Assembly (NCBI RefSeq): GCF_030384885.1
Contig: NZ_CP128613.1
Source of the DNA: Escherichia coli
Lineage (GTDB): Bacteria > Pseudomonadota > Gammaproteobacteria > Enterobacterales > Enterobacteriaceae
Direction: 5' to 3' (one strand)
DNA: 64,000 nucleotides
Positions 23,365 through 64,000 of the stretch are shown piece after piece. Each line of letters starts with the position of its first letter. Within the stretch, counting starts at the first letter, position 1. Made by a program: the position numbers and the translations under genes. The notes beneath the pieces are model-generated. The model had not been told where the DNA came from. It saw only the letters and a list, made by a program, of their open reading frames with translations, and did no database searches.

Positions 23365-26300
23365 TTAATGGAAAATGACGTCAGGTGCGCTTAACGCTTC
23401 ACTCAAATCAAACGTATCGAGTTCGGCAAAAGTGACAGATTTATTGTCACGGTACACTCGAAGAGAACGGAAGCTCATTAGCGCTTTGCTATCAGCACTG
23501 TAGTGGTTAAAACCGGGTGAAAACTTAAGGACCAGCCGATACTCGCCCAGGTCATAGACACATGCGTCCTCAAAACCTGACTCCCAGCCTTTGTATCGCA
23601 TTCCCATAAGTTGCCCAACGGTTGCGGATTTACCTTCCCAGCGAGTCAGGCTGTTACTGGCTGACTCGTCAGGTGTGAGCAGCACTGTGCGCCGCATCAA
23701 CTGGCGAAAAGGCGGCATAATTTCGTAATCGGCAAAAACCTGTGCAAATTCACTGCGCATTTCTGCTGTCATTTCTAACGGGTGGGCAATGCCAATCAGA
23801 GCATCCGCAGGCAGGTCAATTGGCTCATCTTGTGCGTTGCAGAACTCCCTCTCAGCGGCCACACGAAAGGCGTTAAGTAAACGACGCGGTTCATTTGCCG
23901 GATAAACCGCCCATATTAATCGCTGAGTAACCAGGCGAGTAAAGGGATGATTAACAAACAGAGAATGAAAATCTGCCAGCGACCAGCGTCGAGTGGTGCG
24001 TAGGGCAGTTTCAAGACGCGGGAGCAGGTTTTTGCTCACCTGAGTGGCATCTTTTTTTAGCCCTTTTAGTCGGGCCAGTGCCTCGGGTGCTTTCAGCTGA
24101 TCGTCATCGGCGCGCAACCGGGGAACACTTTTCTGGCGAACGTTTTGCTGATCAAAGATAACCGGGTTGAGGTTTTCATCGAAGCGAACGGTAAACTGCC
24201 GGGGTCCAAAATCAAATATCAACGCCTGCGGATCATCCAGGCCCAGTGTTGGGACTAATCTGTCCGCTAACTCTTCCTGGCTTAGTCCACGATTTTCTGC
24301 GACCACCTGAAGAAATTCCGCCGCGTTATCACGTAAGGGACGGGATTTCGCCCGTTGCGATATATGATGCAGCTGTATCAGCGCCATATCATTATTCATC
24401 AGGGTAAGTATATTCAGACCACTGACAGCACGGGCAGATTTGCCCTCTTGAGGCCAGGCAAGGATCTGTGTCGTCAGATCCCGTGCCGTGCTTTCGTCGC
24501 CAAAGAGACTTAACGCCAGAAATGCCCAGTTGTCTTTTGCGGGAGCACCAGCTTGTTGCCACGCGGTGAAAAGATCCCAGGCAAAAGCGGCCAGCGTTTG
24601 TGGCTGGCAGAACGTTTTCAGTTGTTCCAGCCCGCAATAAAAACGTCCGCCCTGGGTAAAGCGCAGCATTTCGCCAATAATTTCCAGAGCGTCATCAGTA
24701 ACAGGTTGATTATTCGTGATAAGTCTCGGTCTGGACCACATTGTCGGATGCCAGAAATCAGGAGCTTTTGGAATGCGTGTTGGGTAAATCTCTATTGGAC
24801 TCTGTTTAAGTAATTGATCCAGGGCAGGCCATACATCTGTACGCTGCCAGCGGTTTGCCACGGTTTGCAGTAATTCGCCATGCCCTTGTTCATACAGTAA
24901 ACGCAGAGCGCTGAGTGCCGCTTCGCTGTTATCGCCAGACCTGGCAAAGATTAATGGGATCAGCGCCGTAGCCGTATGCTCCGGCCATTGTAAAATCCAC
25001 TGGCGAGCCAGATTACGCTGGCCCGCAAAACGATGCCAGACGCGGGCAACGGGCAGCGCCAGTTCTGTTGCGCCAAAATGAATCAGCAGCGGAAATATCT
25101 CTTTGGGATGTCGGGCAAAGGCGGTGATTAATCCGGGCAAAGCATCGGTACCCAGGACACTTAACAGATATTCTACCCCGGTGTAATGAAAATCAGCCGC
25201 AACAATTTGTTGCCAGCACGATACCGCCATTTCGCGCGGCATCTGCGCGATAAGGTACAGATTCCACACTCCCCAACGCTTTTCATCAGTGTAATTAAAT
25301 TTGCGTTGGAAAGTTCGCCACCCCTCCATCAACGCAACGCTATCTTGTGCCAGTAATGCGCTGGCGGCCTCTTCCCGGTAGTGTTTATTTTCAGTCTGTT
25401 TTGCCTGATAATTGAGCAATCTTCCTAATGAAGTATGTGTCTCTAGTTGATCGGTATCCAGAGCATCCAACTGTCCTGTGAGAATAAACTCATTAAACTT
25501 CCACCTGTGATCTTCAAAACCTAATTCCCGCAAGAAGGTATCTGCCCCTCTGCTTACGAGACGTTCGTCAAAAGACATGGCGCTAAAATGGTCAATTGCA
25601 GTTTGCTGTTCCGGCGTCCAGTGTTTATTCGGCGACCTATACGCTTGCGGTACAAGCGTAAGTTCAGGTAGCGAAAAGTGAGTTATGGAAGTCTTTTTCC
25701 TGCCACGCCATGGTGGTGAAACGAGGATTTCAGGCAGACTGCTGTTATCGGTGCTATCAATAACCGGTTTTGGCGATGCCGATAAATAACTATTCACCAC
25801 TGCCCGGGCTTGAGTACTTAACCACGGGATCACCTCTTCTGCCAGTTGTGGCTGCGATGCCATCAGCGTTTGTAACAGCGTACGCCAGTATTCATCACGT
25901 GCTTTTTGCTGTGCAGGCAGCTTTTTGTCTTCGATGATAGGATAACCAGGGCGCGTAGGGGGGGCTTTTAACGCCAGTAGTTCTGCCAGTGCGGCGAGCG
26001 TCGCATGGGGAAAGTTTTTACTGTATTTAGCCACACGCTGCAGGCTGGGTTTGTTTTTATCGGCAACTAACAGCAAGATGCGAATAATTTGCGGATGGTT
26101 AATTTGTACCAGCAGGCTACCGCAATCTTCTTTATGGGCATACATTGCCAGGTGTGGAATGGCTGCCAGTCCTTGTTCGCGCAAAAGGGCAGCGCAGGCC
26201 GCGTAGCCGAAGTGGTTTTCATGCGACATGTAGCTGGCTTCCCGATCGCTAAATATATCCTGGCTCCAGTAGCGTTCGAGTTTTTTCACCGCTCTGGGGT

Positions 26301-30000: not shown

Positions 30001-30813
30001 GGAATATTGCTGCAAGTTATCAGGTGCAATGCCAGACGGCAGAATAATAATGATATTATTCGCATAATTCCATTCAATATCAATCTGTTGAAGGTGTATT
30101 ATTACATCAGTAGCATATTCCAGACCGCCTTCCTGAATGATCTGATCCATAACATCCTCACGCACTTTATATCTTGTGCATTTCATTTCAAGTGCCGTGA
30201 GTACAGCCATTACTGGTGATGGTAACTGTGTTGTTTTCAGGCAGTCGATCTGACTGATCGCCTGGGCGACGGTGTTTTGCCATACTAAAGAACAGGCGCT
30301 GAAGTCAAATGTGGCTGTTTTATTATCCCGTTGCGACACGCTACAGGCTAAGCGACGTAACTGGGTCAAGTTGTCTGCTTGCTGAACAGGAACTCCGGGA
30401 AAGCGGCGATGGCTTAACGTGGTGTGTACAACTTCGGGCGGAAAAACGACAGCAATATCTTTCGCCAGCCACGGTAAAACATCATCTGTATTTTTGTCAG
30501 CCACACGGGCTTCTGCTACGCAAAAGGGTTGTTCCTGAATAATGGTGGATAAGGCCGCTACCTTGAGAGAATCCGTTACCGTTTGGGAAGGTTGCAAAGA
30601 ATTATCCTTCGCTTGCTCCACATACCCCTTCTTCATCTTCTCCGCAATCAGCCTCAGTTCCGCTTTTTCCGCCGCCGCAGCATCAGCAAAGCTTTTTACC
30701 TGGCTTTGCCCGTTGGTACCAACTTTGCCCCAACTAATATGCAGCTCGTTTCCCTGTTGCTCCACTGCCCAGAATTTATGTGATTTTTCGTCCTGATAAA
30801 TATAGGTTTTCAT
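27019..30813 (-). CDS. molR: MolR-like protein, WGR domain plus DUF4132 (1264 aa), copy A
   Basis: N-terminus MKTYIYQDEKSHKFWAVEQQGNELHISWGKVGTNGQ is a WGR domain; C-terminal DUF4132-like region; 3-nt gap to yehI start; which copy corresponds to K-12 molR is uncertain. Confidence 0.85.
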   Translation of the reverse strand: MKTYIYQDEKSHKFWAVEQQGNELHISWGKVGTNGQSQVKSFADAAAAEKAELRLIAEKMKKGYVEQAKDNSLQPSQTVTDSLKVAALSTIIQEQPFCVAEARVADKNTDDVLPWLAKDIAVVFPPEVVHTTLSHRRFPGVPVQQADNLTQLRRLACSVSQRDNKTATFDFSACSLVWQNTVAQAISQIDCLKTTQLPSPVMAVLTALEMKCTRYKVREDVMDQIIQEGGLEYATDVIIHLQQIDIEWNYANNIIIILPSGIAPDNLQQYSSFELRLRKHLSLAEESLWQKCAQKLIAAIPHIPEWRQPLIALLLPEKPEIAHEIAQRLLGKKKLPSLEWLKIVATDEHILASLEKYHEPYAIFDDYYCGAIWSATVLQEQGVAALPRFAPYAASDYCADVLRHINHPFALTLLIRVAGHTKRCHDRMTKACAAFPHAALAALAELLVQKEENSWRIMLMTMLISQPALAEQVIPWLSTPAAAVLKSCQQQLTQPSNHASTDLLPAIVVSPPWLSKKKKSSIPVLDLAPLGIEPISYLTEEISNQLLAKYIWYSKHITVSHEESTANLLARMGFQRRIAGTYIKAPEAVVEAWLNEDYSTLISEFKVFHSPTGHYWHLGILTTLPLEKAIRAWNALTVSPHTDTEYAMLHFGLKGLPGLVNSLARYPQEALPITNYFAASELAPAVARAFNKLKTLRQDARTWLLKYPEHAIIGLLPAALGKAGEAQDNARAALRMLIESGYPSLLQEIAQRYNQPEVTDAVNALLALDPLDNHPTKIPTLPAFYQPSLWTRPVLKANAQSLPDSALFHLGEMLRFPQEDTLYAGLLQVKDACTADSLAEFAWDLFTAWETAGAPSKESWAFTALGVLGNDDTARKLTPLIRAWPGESQHKRATVGLDILAAIGSDIALMQLNGIAQKLKFKALQERAKEKIADIAESRELTVAELEDRLAPDLGLDDNGSLLLDFGPRQFTVSFDETLKPFVRDASGSRLKDLPKPNKSDDETQANDAVNRYKLLKKDARTVAAQQVARLESAMCLRRRWSPENFQLFLVENPLVCHLTRRLIWGIYSADNQLLACFRVAEDNSYSTADDDLFTLPEGDISIGIPHVLEISPTDAAAFGQLFADYELLPPFRQLDRNSYALTEVERNTSELTRWAGRKCPSGRVMGLSNKGWVRGEPQDGGWIGWMIKPLGRWSLIMEIDEGFAVGMSPAELSAEQLLSKLWLWEGKAESYGWGINSTQEALFSALDDITASELINDIEALFE

Positions 30814-59184: not shown

Positions 59185-59289
59185 AACCGCGGGCCAGCGT
59201 GATGCTGGCCCGGTATTGTGCAAAACAGATCATTCACCAATGGTCCCCCTTCGTTTACACTAGCCACAATTGAATATGGGTAAATGACG

Positions 59290-60063
59290 ATGAATTCATT
59301 CGAGCGAAGGAATAAGATCATCCAATTAGTGAATGAACAGGGAACCGTGCTTGTTCAGGATCTGGCGGGAGTATTTGCTGCCTCGGAAGCGACAATCCGT
59401 GCCGATTTGCGCTTTCTCGAACAAAAAGGCGTGGTTACGCGCTTTCATGGCGGTGCGGCGAAAATAATGTCCGGTAATAGTGAAACCGAGACCCAGGAAG
59501 TCGGGTTTAAAGAGCGATTTCAGCTCGCCAGCGCACCGAAAAACAGAATAGCGCAGGCGGCAGTCAAAATGATCCACGAAGGGATGACCGTTATTCTCGA
59601 CAGCGGAAGTACGACAATGCTTATCGCCGAAGGTTTAATGACCGCCAAAAATATCACGGTGATTACCAACAGTCTCCCGGCGGCGTTTGCCCTTTCCGAA
59701 AATAAAGACATTACTCTGGTCGTCTGTGGTGGCACGGTCCGCCATAAAACGCGCTCGATGCATGGCTCCATTGCCGAGCGTTCATTGCAGGATATTAATG
59801 CCGATTTAATGTTTGTCGGTGCTGATGGTATTGATGCGGTTAATGGTATTACGACCTTTAATGAAGGTTATTCGATTAGCGGTGCGATGGTCACAGCCGC
59901 TAATAAAGTGATTGCCGTTCTCGATTCATCGAAATTTAACCGTCGCGGTTTTAATCAGGTACTACCAATCGAAAAAATTGACATTATTATTACCGATGAT
60001 GCCGTGTCAGAGGTGGATAAACTGGCATTGCAGAAGACACGGGTGAAATTAATTACGGTGTAG
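59290..60063 (+). CDS. gatR: DeoR-family repressor of the gat operon (intact)
   Basis: 257 aa from ATG 59290 (alternative start 59284); DeoR HTH N-terminus; uninterrupted reading frame. Confidence 0.88.
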   Translation: MNSFERRNKIIQLVNEQGTVLVQDLAGVFAASEATIRADLRFLEQKGVVTRFHGGAAKIMSGNSETETQEVGFKERFQLASAPKNRIAQAAVKMIHEGMTVILDSGSTTMLIAEGLMTAKNITVITNSLPAAFALSENKDITLVVCGGTVRHKTRSMHGSIAERSLQDINADLMFVGADGIDAVNGITTFNEGYSISGAMVTAANKVIAVLDSSKFNRRGFNQVLPIEKIDIIITDDAVSEVDKLALQKTRVKLITV

Positions 60064-60144: not shown

Positions 60145-61044
60145 TTAACGCAATAATGGACAATCCGGTGGTAATCGACAGCGCAATGCTGCCGGAAGTA
60201 TTTCAATATGAAAGTTTTGTCCACTCAACGGTTCGCCATCAAGATTAAAGGTAATTTCGTGTGGCGCTTGTATATCGAACCACGCCGAAGCACCTTCGAT
60301 AATATTCGGGTTATCTTCGTCAGATTTTAAGGTTGATACGAGAGCCGGAAGAATTTCATCGCCGGTGAAAATGCGCAGTTGCAGTAAGCCGTCGTTAATT
60401 AATGCGTTCGGGCACAATTGCTGACCGCCACCTGCCTGACGGCCGTTACCAATACCAATGACTAGTGCGTCACCTTGCCAGTGAAAGTTTTCACCGCGGA
60501 TTTCACAACGGTCCGGTTGCAGTGTATCCATGCGCATTAAGCCGTGAATGATGTAAGAGACGCCACCCAGCGCTGCTTTTAATTTTTCCGGCGTTTCTGT
60601 GGTAATACGTGTCCCAAACCCACCCGTTGCCATATTAATAAAACAGGTTTGTTTGTTGACCTGCGCCATATCAATCGCAATAGCGTCACCAGCAATTGCT
60701 TGTTTCAGCGCCTTATCCAGTGCCTCAGGAATCCCTACACTGGTGGCAAAATCATTGGCGGTTCCTAATGGCAAAATTCCCAGCGCGGGTATGTCATCCC
60801 CCTCACACTGAATCAACGCCGTAGAAACTTCATTAATGGTGCCATCGCCACCACCGGCAATCACCGTTGCGACGCCCAACTTCCGGGCCTCTTCTACAAA
60901 TCGGGCGGCATCGCCTTTCTCCCAGGTGACCCGCACATGGATCGTCATTCCTTCCTCGCGCAACAGCATAATTGCTTCGCGCAAGGGTTGATTGTCAGTA
61001 CTTTTGCCGTTAAGAATCAGTAAGCTGGCGGGAAATTCTGCCAT
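60145..61044 (-). CDS. yegS: Lipid kinase YegS (DAGK-like catalytic domain)
   Basis: 299 aa; GGDGT motif ([11 protein letters not shown]). Confidence 0.92.
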
Positions 61045-61457
61045 AATCGTATGCCTTTATGATTGGTCTGTAGATAGTGTAGAGCAGAAAAGAAAAGGTG
61101 GAGTCAGAACAGGATGAAAATCGGAGGATAAAAAGTCAGTTCAAGTATGGGGGATTCAGTGGTTACCACCAGGAGCTTGCAATGGGGACAGTGAATGTTA
61201 ACGGTAGCCACCGATAAATTTCAAAAAAGAACATATACCTAATATTCAACTAAACAGTGGCATCTTCAATATCTTATTCTAAATATATTAAAGCCCTCAT
61301 GGGGGTACCTGGGAAGGGCCTTCATGTTTGTAATTCCTACTTATGTAGGAAATGTTGTACAGAACATTTATTATAATCCTATTCAATTATAATAATCATG
61401 CCATTATTATATTTAAACACCATAGCGTGTCGTTGGTATTTAATGGGGGAAGGTGAG

Positions 61458-61775
61458 ATGAAAAAGACAGCTGCTATATCATTAATTAGTGTTTTTCTTA
61501 TGTCTGGTTGTGCTGTGCATAATGATGAGACAAGTATCGGTAAATTCGGTCTTGCCTATAAAAGTAATATCCAGCGTAAACTCGATAACCAATACTACAC
61601 TGAAGCCGAAGCATCTTTAGCCAGGGGAAGAATATCTGGTGCGGAAAATATAGTGAAAAATGATGCAGCTAATTTCTGTGTTACTCAGGGCAAAAAAATG
61701 CAGATAGTTAACCTGAAGACTGAAGGGGCAGGATTACATGGCGTCGCGCGTCTGACATTCAAATGTGGAGAGTGA
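61458..61775 (+). CDS. yegR: Small lipoprotein YegR
   Basis: ATG at 61458 after SD; 105 aa beginning MKKTAAISLISVFLMSGCAV (lipobox). Confidence 0.8.
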   Translation: MKKTAAISLISVFLMSGCAVHNDETSIGKFGLAYKSNIQRKLDNQYYTEAEASLARGRISGAENIVKNDAANFCVTQGKKMQIVNLKTEGAGLHGVARLTFKCGE

Positions 61776-61945
61776 GAATATTTTTTTGTAAGCGTCAAAC
61801 ATGCGCGTTCTGGTTGTGCGTAGCCGGAGCCTGTACGAGCACGATGCCGTTAAGTGAAAGGCATCGTGCTATGAAGGGGGATTCTATCGATGTGGTCAAT
61901 GGAAGACGGTCACCTGGGATCAATCCGTCTCTATGGTTTATGCAT

Positions 61946-62032
61946 AAAAAATAAGCCCGTGTAAGGGAGATTACACAGGCTAAGGAGGTGGTTCCTGGTA
62001 CAGCTAGCATTTTATGGGTTATGTTTTTCAGC
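61946..62032 (-). ncRNA. cyaR: CyaR (RyeE) Hfq-dependent sRNA
   Basis: Minus strand reads GCTGAAAAACATAACCCATAAAATGCTAGCTGTACCAGGAACCACCTCCTTAGCCTGTGTAATCTCCCTTACACGGGCTTATTTTTT, matching CyaR including its terminator, as recalled. Confidence 0.9.
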
Positions 62033-62116
62033 GAAACGGATGATAACCTTAATAAATGCAGCTGTATGTGATCGGTTTCTAAGAATTTTCCATCCGGGAA
62101 AAATAATCGAAATTAA

Positions 62117-63478
62117 TCACTTACCGTGGGGGTTACGCGTGGTTTCCCCGGAGAAATTACGCATCAGCAGCGCGTAATTTAGCTCAAGATCCTGCGGGAC
62201 CGGGATCCACACAGTATAACCATCGCCCGGTGCGACCGGCATTGCTTCGCCTTTGGCGTTTTCCATATGCTCAAGGGTAAAGTTAATGTTCCCTTGCGGC
62301 GTCATCAGCTCAAGGCTGTCGCCAACGGAGAATTTATTTTTCACCGCTACCGCCGCGAGGTCGCCCTTGCGCTCACCGGTAAACTCACCAACAAACTGCT
62401 GGCGGTCAGAAACTGAATAACCGTATTCGTAGTTCTGATAATCGTCGTGAGTATGACGACGCAGGAAACCTTCGGTATAGCCACGATGCGCCAGACCTTC
62501 CAGAGTTTCCAGCAGGCTGGTATCGAATGGTTTTCCCGCAGCTGCGTCATCGATAGCTTTACGGTAAACCTGCGCGGTGCGTGCGCAATAGTAGAAAGAT
62601 TTTGTACGACCTTCGATTTTCAGCGAATGCACGCCCATTTTGGTCAGGCGTTCTACGTGGGCAATGGCGCGCAAATCTTTTGAGTTCATGATGTAAGTGC
62701 CGTGCTCATCTTCAAACGCGGTCATATACTCGCCCGGACGCTGGGCTTCTTCGATCATAAACACTTTGTCGGTTGGCGCGCCGATACCCAGCGTCGGCTC
62801 AACATTTTGCACCGGAATTGGCTCGTACTTGTGTACGATGTTGCCAACGTCATCTTCTTTACCTTCCTGGACGTTGTACTCCCAGCGGCAGGCGTTGGTG
62901 CAGGTGCCCTGGTTCGGATCGCGCTTGTTGATATAACCAGAGAGCAGGCAGCGACCAGAGTAGGCCATGCACAGCGCGCCGTGAACGAAGATTTCGAGTT
63001 CCATATCCGGCACCTGATTGCGGATCTCTTCAATCTCTTCCAGCGACAGTTCGCGAGAGAGGATCACGCGGGTCAGGCCCATTTGCTGCCAGAATTTCAC
63101 CGTCGCCCAGTTCACTGCGTTAGCCTGTACCGAGAGATGGATCGGCATTTCAGGGAAGTGCTCACGCACCAGCATAATCAGCCCTGGATCGGACATAATC
63201 AGCGCATCCGGCCCCATTTCCACCACCGGTTTCAGGTCACGGATAAAGGTTTTCAACTTAGCGTTGTGCGGTGCAATGTTGACCACGACATAAAACTTTT
63301 TCCCCAGCGCGTGGGCTTCATTAATGCCGAGCTGAAGATTTTCGTGGTTGAATTCGTTGTTGCGCACACGCAGGGAGTAACGCGGCTGGCCCGCATAAAC
63401 AGCATCTGCGCCATAAGCGAAAGCGTAACGCATATTTTTCAGCGTTCCCGCCGGGGAAAGGAGTTCCGGTTTAAACAT
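62117..63478 (-). CDS. yegQ: Peptidase U32-family protein YegQ (TrhP, tRNA U34 hydroxylation)
   Basis: 453 aa beginning MFKPELLSPAGTLKNMRYAFAYGADAVYAGQPRYSLRVRNNEF; U32 Cys-rich region. Confidence 0.93.
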   Translation of the reverse strand: MFKPELLSPAGTLKNMRYAFAYGADAVYAGQPRYSLRVRNNEFNHENLQLGINEAHALGKKFYVVVNIAPHNAKLKTFIRDLKPVVEMGPDALIMSDPGLIMLVREHFPEMPIHLSVQANAVNWATVKFWQQMGLTRVILSRELSLEEIEEIRNQVPDMELEIFVHGALCMAYSGRCLLSGYINKRDPNQGTCTNACRWEYNVQEGKEDDVGNIVHKYEPIPVQNVEPTLGIGAPTDKVFMIEEAQRPGEYMTAFEDEHGTYIMNSKDLRAIAHVERLTKMGVHSLKIEGRTKSFYYCARTAQVYRKAIDDAAAGKPFDTSLLETLEGLAHRGYTEGFLRRHTHDDYQNYEYGYSVSDRQQFVGEFTGERKGDLAAVAVKNKFSVGDSLELMTPQGNINFTLEHMENAKGEAMPVAPGDGYTVWIPVPQDLELNYALLMRNFSGETTRNPHGK

Positions 63479-63681: not shown

Positions 63682-63951
63682 TTAAAGAAAGGGAATATAA
63701 CCCCATAACTTGTTGTGAAGTTCCGGATTGCAGGTAAAAAGCGCCTGAAGTTGCTGACGCTGAGGAGCATTTGGTTGAATGCCCGAAAGATTGAAATTGC
63801 GTTGCCATATCGCGAGCTGTTTACCTGCAAATTCTTCAGTTAGCTTGTGTTGCGATTGCAGAAGAAGAATTAAACAGGCCCATTTGTTCAAGTTATGATA
63901 CAGCCGACAATATGCGCAAGCATGTTTAACTGACGGTGCGTTTTCCAGCAA
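63682..63951 (-). CDS. Hypothetical 89-aa ORF of doubtful coding status
   Basis: Only an open frame (MLENAPSVKHACAYCRLYHNLNKWACL...); no recognisable family and no clear SD checked. Confidence 0.15.
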   Translation of the reverse strand: MLENAPSVKHACAYCRLYHNLNKWACLILLLQSQHKLTEEFAGKQLAIWQRNFNLSGIQPNAPQRQQLQALFTCNPELHNKLWGYIPFL

Positions 63952-64000
63952 CTTACGTATTTCCTCGAACGTAAGCGGAACTCGACACCATACACAGATG

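Follow-up and report, generated by a model that had tools for sequence, protein, structure and literature searches.

Why should the junction between yegR, the small RNA gene cyaR and yegQ be so compact in this Escherichia coli strain when K-12 carries phage genes at the very same place, and what does the compact form say about the history of the site? The first-pass annotation of the stretch of 64,000 nucleotides analysed here (the window) had placed a cryptic P2-like remnant, ogrK and yegZ, between yegR and cyaR on the K-12 map, and had estimated that only about 170 bp separate the two genes in the window. Both statements proved accurate. The yegR stop codon (61775) and the 3' end of CyaR are 173 nt apart (Table 1); a K-12 derivative is annotated in the order yegR, 'phage late control D' pseudogene, ogrK, yegQ; and in a base-level alignment K-12 carries 629 bp more between the same flanks, made up of yegZ (a fragment of gene D) and ogrK, so that the equal spacing which would have spoken against this map is not what is seen. 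The lack of an Ogr-like reading frame, also claimed at that stage, was borne out by tblastn, which found no homolog of OgrK, P2 Ogr, the K-12 gpD fragment or P2 Int anywhere in the 64 kb (best E=0.38). With neither an Ogr coding sequence nor a gene D fragment between yegR and cyaR, there is no remnant of the K-12 type here. E. coli 2013C-4282 (NZ_CP027579.1) matches the window at 100% identity.

Table 1. Features of the yegS-yegQ interval, in window coordinates
Feature	Position	Strand	Basis or remarks
yegS (lipid kinase)	60145-61044	-	ORF and annotation
Degenerate copy of the P2 att core, putative relic attL, AAAAAGTCAGTTCAAGTATGGGGGATT	61130-61156	+	19/27
Putative P'-arm relic	61162-61185	+	resembles P2 24389-24412, 18/24
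AT-rich islet interior upstream of yegR	61186-61457		GC 0.32-0.39 vs ~0.5 in flanks
yegR	61458-61775	+	105 aa, predicted lipoprotein; CDS as annotated in NZ_CP027579.1
Phage 186-like segment	61780-61830	+	82% to 186 30517-30567, near the right cohesive end
Perfect 11-bp inverted repeat, AGCACGATGCC-11 nt-GGCATCGTGCT	61838-61870		hairpin without a T run
Putative P-arm relic	61887-61945	+	arm-type Int repeat, degenerate second repeat, decayed IHF-site region
P2 attB core, AAAAAATAAGCCCGTGTAAGGGAGATT	61946-61972	+	27/27 to the P2 attP core
cyaR (ryeE) sRNA gene	61949-62034	-	Rfam CyaR_RyeE (RF00112), terminator scan, fold
CyaR terminator hairpin	61954-61981	-	terminator scan and fold
yegQ/trhP	62117-63478	-	conserved right-hand neighbour

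The P2 attachment core in the cyaR terminator

The small RNA gene belongs to the CyaR family, the Rfam covariance model giving it 100.7 bits where the gathering score is 47, and its terminator forms a stem of 11 pairs followed by a U tail (fold -22.4 kcal/mol, z=-3.1). The promoter region (62035-62116) is the same in the window and in K-12 when the two are aligned; a passage of PMC3333887 cites the CyaR promoter as dependent on CRP-cAMP. Overlapping the terminator lies a segment identical at every position to the attP core of phage P2, annotated at 24356-24382 of NC_001895, between ogr and int; the BLAST match extends to 28/28 against P2 24355-24382. This core spans the U tail of CyaR, the loop of its terminator, the 3' side of the stem and two bases of the 5' side, and the attachment site is thus situated inside the sRNA gene and not, as had been proposed, next to it.

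The core is, moreover, in natural use. Prophages found at this site are flanked by copies of it, and in occupied genomes the split BLAST matches overlap by exactly 27 bp, namely 61946-61972. Direct repeats of the kind that the first-pass annotation had proposed to look for in remnant-bearing strains are present in O157:H7, whose Z1835 element is a complete P2-type prophage with a duplicated core, arranged as yegR-spacer-core-int-C-cox...D-ogr-core-cyaR-yegQ. With a 201-bp junction query, empty and occupied sites could not be told apart, owing to the likeness of the phage P arm to the bacterial arm. Judged by core identity and by the prophages of other strains, 61946-61972 is the attB used by phage P2 and related phages, here in the state without a prophage. 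The P2 integrase would recombine attP with the 27-bp core in the cyaR terminator and so place the prophage between yegR and cyaR, with int beside yegR and D-ogr beside cyaR; as the phage brings the identical 27 bp with it, integration rebuilds an intact cyaR at attR.

How much of this is new? 'cyaR RNA' appears among the insertion sites of P2 in Table 2 of the E. coli W genome paper, the site holding Wphi2 in W and ogr-D' in K-12 and being empty in Crooks (PMC3032704), and for this reason the junction as originally noted is correct, ordinary and already known. The core and the flanking genes are the same as those of the known P2 site, from which the core site itself differs in nothing; the structure of the K-12 'ogr-D'' remnant (D fragment, ogr, attR) is reproduced in our comparison, and the window represents the form without prophage or K-12 remnant. 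Nor is there any difference in principle from phage integration into the 3' ends of tRNA, tmRNA and sRNA genes, since here too the core overlaps an sRNA terminator and the phage supplies a replacement 3' end; the cyaR site is one more documented example of this class, and the sdsR locus has likewise been noted as a phage attachment site (PMC3333887).

An 816-bp islet around yegR

Is the site then truly empty? The proposal that the junction is the unoccupied form of a strain-variable insertion site holds insofar as this is a P2 site free of prophage and remnant, with a 27/27 core and with occupied strains known. 'Unoccupied' is nevertheless a relative term only, because we assign yegR and the roughly 170-bp spacer behind it to an older, decayed insertion of P2 type. 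The grounds for this assignment come from the other species. A scan of species representatives for the conserved 3' part of cyaR gave at least 120 loci; in more than 35 of the Enterobacterales species covered, and likewise in 'E. coli' E69, the distance between the yegS start and the core is 73-145 bp and the interval lacks yegR, so that these outgroups lack the whole islet at exactly the point concerned. Searched with tblastn, the scanned species loci yielded of YegR only a 22-aa inverted fragment, in a cryptic-clade Escherichia locus (L098). The yegS of E69 is 86.8% identical to that of E. coli, about as distant as that of E. albertii, which marks E69 as an outgroup lineage at this locus and not as the product of a recent deletion; it is the single virgin Escherichia lineage among the loci listed. 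Going by these alignments, the truly virgin arrangement would be yegS, about 85 bp, core and cyaR, without yegR. Such a junction in one piece occurs in 0 of 5426 complete E. coli genomes. A single one of these genomes, FDAARGOS_1077, has lost yegR (none is annotated), and among complete E. coli it alone has the region upstream of yegS and cyaR within 678 bp of each other. The gene beyond yegS in that strain encodes a HAD hydrolase and is not gatR.

Relative to the yegR-less E69 locus, the window carries an insertion of 816 bp. On its yegS side, the sequence up to 61129 corresponds to the ancestral bacterial arm of the att site, and homology to E69 stops exactly at 61130-61156, the best non-self match to the core on either strand of the whole 64-kb window. 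The islet is accordingly bounded by direct repeats of the att core, degenerate on the left (19/27) and complete on the right (27/27), and sequences resembling phage arms lie inside each repeat in the orientation that they have in a prophage. The resemblance of the left one to the P' arm, at a register shift of 1 from the core, was equalled in 0 of 5000 shuffles and by 0 of 5000 random 60-mers from the window; in a free local alignment its score of 18 was equalled by 126 of 500 shuffles and is not significant, so that significance attaches to the fixed register only. On the right, TCGATGTGGTCAATG (61887-61901) is identical to the first part of the annotated arm-type Int site of P2 (24293-24320), and beyond it the likeness to P2 persists in decaying form across the IHF-site region as far as the core. 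When the core is left out, the local alignment score is 33, whereas the best of 500 shuffles reaches 25 (0/500). In the window strain this P-arm relic is about 12 bp longer than in typical E. coli. All three, the two arm relics and the degenerate core, are conserved throughout E. coli, and the cryptic-clade locus L098 stands closer to P2, with a core copy of 21/27 (manual count), an intact ACCAGTAGGG of the P' arm, a nearly complete IHF region and a fuller P-arm copy.

The AT-rich interior upstream of yegR is missing from E69 and from other genera, and the low GC of the islet counts in favour of an old phage insertion. The 186-like segment behind yegR is a weak clue, being common to phage 186 and one 186-like contig only; its motif found 37 matches in viral contigs, and all others of these are host DNA, either the yegR-proximal flank of P2-type prophage predictions or host contigs. 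The hairpin downstream is kept in all E. coli spacers compared. It stands roughly where an ogr terminator would stand relative to the P-arm repeat. Recognisable phage genes are lacking, as tblastn detected no Int, Ogr or D in the islet, and this counts against its being a phage relic, as does the shortness of the P' stretch (24 nt).

The spacer itself varies. In 948 of 5426 genomes (the CFT073 type; L002 1476-1645), about 170 bp of extra AT-rich DNA follow the yegR stop codon, at the point between window positions 61775 and 61776. An insertion was considered as the source of this segment and rejected, for it is also present in the cryptic-clade locus L098; the longer spacer is therefore the older one, and the compact spacer of the window and of K-12 is a deletion derivative.

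Do decayed islets of this kind exist in a better state of preservation? In E. albertii NBRC 107761 (L023, 4956-8325), the interval between yegS and cyaR is occupied by a 3.4-kb islet carrying cdtABC (Pfam CDtoxinA, Exo_endo_phos). It begins with an attL core of 25/27 and a P' arm that agrees with P2 at 84% over 96 bp, shows on the right of cdtABC similarity to the outermost right-hand sequences of 186 and P2, and ends with a P-arm relic (84% over 74 bp) followed by the core. The 25/27 core repeat and the preserved arms show this islet to be a P2-type prophage that has decayed in the same att site. Morons of P2-like phages, for example the cdt-V of E. coli O157 prophages, are known from the TO region, which lies between gene A and the cos/Q end (PMC6823313). 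The yegR islet shares with that of E. albertii the succession attL, P' arm, cargo, right-end sequence, P arm and attR at cyaR, and with moron-bearing P2-like remnants the retention of cargo after the loss of phage genes. It is, however, far more decayed (attL 19/27 versus 25/27, arms about 60-75% versus 84%), and its cargo, unlike cdt, is one small gene for a predicted lipoprotein with no phage-borne relative found.

These observations suggest that the 'empty' site of E. coli is probably what a P2-family integration of much greater age has left behind. The evidence for this origin of the islet consists of the att relics and the E. albertii parallel, and yegR would presumably be its surviving cargo gene. 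In the sequence of events that we propose, an ancient P2-family phage would have integrated into the ancestral order yegS-(~85 bp)-core-cyaR; later deletions would have removed int through A, and cos through ogr; and yegR, a moron from the cargo region beside the right end of the phage, would have been retained and fixed in E. coli. The 816 bp that remain would then be made up of a degenerate attL core, a P' relic, AT-rich DNA with yegR, a piece resembling the right end, a P relic and an intact core. This last, the old attR core, would owe its perfect preservation to its place within cyaR, and would now serve as attB for the phages of today. It thus seems likely that yegR is the last cargo of an ancient P2-family prophage which entered the cyaR terminator before E. 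coli diversified, and that the P2 attB is the old attR of that prophage. In the searchable literature we found no description of the yegR islet as a P2 relic.

Other origins for the islet and the relatives of YegR

Could the P2 sequences have travelled in the opposite direction? A P2-like ancestor might have taken up host DNA beside attL by aberrant excision, without any older prophage at the site. Such an event could leave a phage genome with B-arm DNA beside ogr and would agree with an islet devoid of phage genes. We nonetheless regard it as very unlikely, as the P-arm sequence TCGATGTGGTCAATGTGTGGAC... also occurs in P2-type prophages of Citrobacter and Enterobacter (L048, L058, L062, L079, L097), does not occur at the virgin cyaR sites of the other Citrobacter and Enterobacter species scanned, and is annotated in P2 as a functional arm site for Int. 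A transfer from host to phage would moreover leave unexplained both the degenerate attL core with the P' relic on the yegS side and the absence of the entire islet from the outgroups.

An insertion unrelated to P2, whether mediated by an IS or by another integrative element, would reduce the att-like features to chance or convergence, and the distribution of YegR lends this idea something. The family (PF27694) is nearly confined to Escherichia, and its relatives of about 50% identity lie elsewhere: in Enterobacter sp. BIDMC 29 beside an MFS transporter gene, where IS, Tn3 and omptin genes are clustered, and on a metagenome scaffold (L137) between a UDG (mug-like) gene and a dehydrogenase gene. 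The YegR family moves between loci. Among 50,697 phage records no genuine YegR homolog was found, which favours an unrelated insertion and counts against the relic reading. Against it stand three independent att features, in the right order and orientation at the exact breakpoint and each improbable by chance, together with the near-identical architecture of E. albertii, where the arms are much better preserved. Core repeats at the same offset from yegS also occur in other species, where a copy 77-93 bp from yegS starts an islet (Enterobacter sichuanensis 21/27, Pluralibacter 18/27, Mangrovibacter 18/27). An unrelated insertion must therefore be called highly improbable, and decay of an old P2-family prophage is the reading that we retain.

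Viral collections call for some care at this point. IMG/VR holds 95 stretches that encode YegR; all 80 of the 80 matches listed, at 93-97% identity, are situated at a contig end or within about 2.3 kb of one, and none is internal to a phage, which is consistent with their being the host flank of prophage predictions at the cyaR site. Phage TP (AY639599) and vB_EcoM-720R8 (ON470606) were likewise considered as evidence for a phage origin and rejected, as the records include host flank; gatR, yegS, yegR and yegQ are the flanking genes met with in these two records and in those from IMG/VR (L140-L256). A phage origin of YegR is not supported by homology. Host flank filed as phage or viral sequence gives rise to false phage matches for host genes, and we caution that several 'phage' records and many viral-contig predictions contain the yegR/yegS flank.

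Two further records deserve mention in their own right. 'Phage TP' resembles a remnant locus of the K-12 type; it contains the spacer and ogr, the core together with cyaR, and part of yegQ under the label 'putative protease'. A contig of a Collinsella sp. metagenome-assembled genome (JAIJJM010000051.1) carries P2 gene D (98%), ogr (100%), attR and the cyaR of E. coli, and is in all likelihood, almost to certainty, an Escherichia/P2 contig that was placed in an actinobacterial bin by mistake. As to function, a yegR knockout had no phenotype in one chemostat study (PMC3708739).

Occupied, remnant and prophage-free forms in E. coli

In K-12, bases 1-18 of the core are fused at the left junction to internal gene D sequence, which identifies the remnant as a lysogen with a deletion from attL into D. 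The deletion in the lysogenic ancestor of K-12 ran from core base 18 of attL into D and left D', ogrK and attR. The cyaR site corresponds to locI of E. coli C; Barreiro and Haggard-Ljungquist reportedly dealt with locI and with the K-12 remnant in J Bacteriol in 1992.

How common are these forms? In the 5426 complete E. coli genomes, a non-random sample in which laboratory derivatives of K-12 are over-represented, the 1-kb junction is found in one place, with gaps of up to 1 kb allowed, in 4565 (84.1%). This number includes the K-12 deletion junction, present in 358 (6.6% of the 5426), and about 4207 genomes (~77%) with neither a large insertion nor the K-12 junction; in about 858 (~16%) the core is split by a large insertion. 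It could be argued that the compact junction is itself derived, its ancestor having lost a K-12-type remnant or a full prophage cleanly: Int/Cox excision of a full prophage would restore exactly this sequence, so that any single strain may have been occupied in the past, and recombination between the full core and the 18-bp partial core of K-12 is conceivable; yet the truncation of the K-12 attL core makes integrase-mediated excision impossible there, the K-12 junction is confined to the 358 genomes just mentioned, a set inflated by laboratory derivatives, and the remnant-free form is the majority and is found in very divergent lineages including that of the window strain, all of which renders such a cure of the site barely credible.

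The window strain is unusually divergent at yegS and across the whole junction. Only 2 of 5425 records reach at least 99% identity to the window over the 1-kb junction, and its yegS is 94.8% identical to that of K-12, whereas the other E. coli compared are 96.6-99.3% alike. The neighbourhood varies as well. The gene gatR, for the galactitol repressor (DeoR/GlpR family), is intact in the window (59284-60063) and in O157; in a K-12 derivative and in BL21 the annotation gives a pseudogene truncated at the N terminus, and in BL21 an IS1 copy lies directly upstream. Between yegQ and yegP there is a 1401-bp gene for a 'HEAT repeat domain-containing protein' (L004 5383-6783), which occupies 63682-64000 of the window and runs past its end; in K-12, BL21 and O157 Z1835 the spacing between yegQ and yegP is only about 146-148 bp.

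Taken as a whole, the locus is very probably best explained by two layers, a P2 attB without prophage and, around yegR, the scar of an older P2-family integration. As regards the first of these, the strain shows a well-known P2 site in its common state, free of prophage, and K-12 is the exception. As regards the second, an evolutionary origin for an orphan gene would be of modest value in itself. If this origin is true, the retained arm-type Int repeat (61887-61901) might add to the strong preference of P2 for this site. An 'empty' att site can thus be the layered scar of earlier integrations, and the interval between yegS and cyaR appears as a recurrent point of cargo capture across the Enterobacterales, as exemplified by cdtABC in E. 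albertii.
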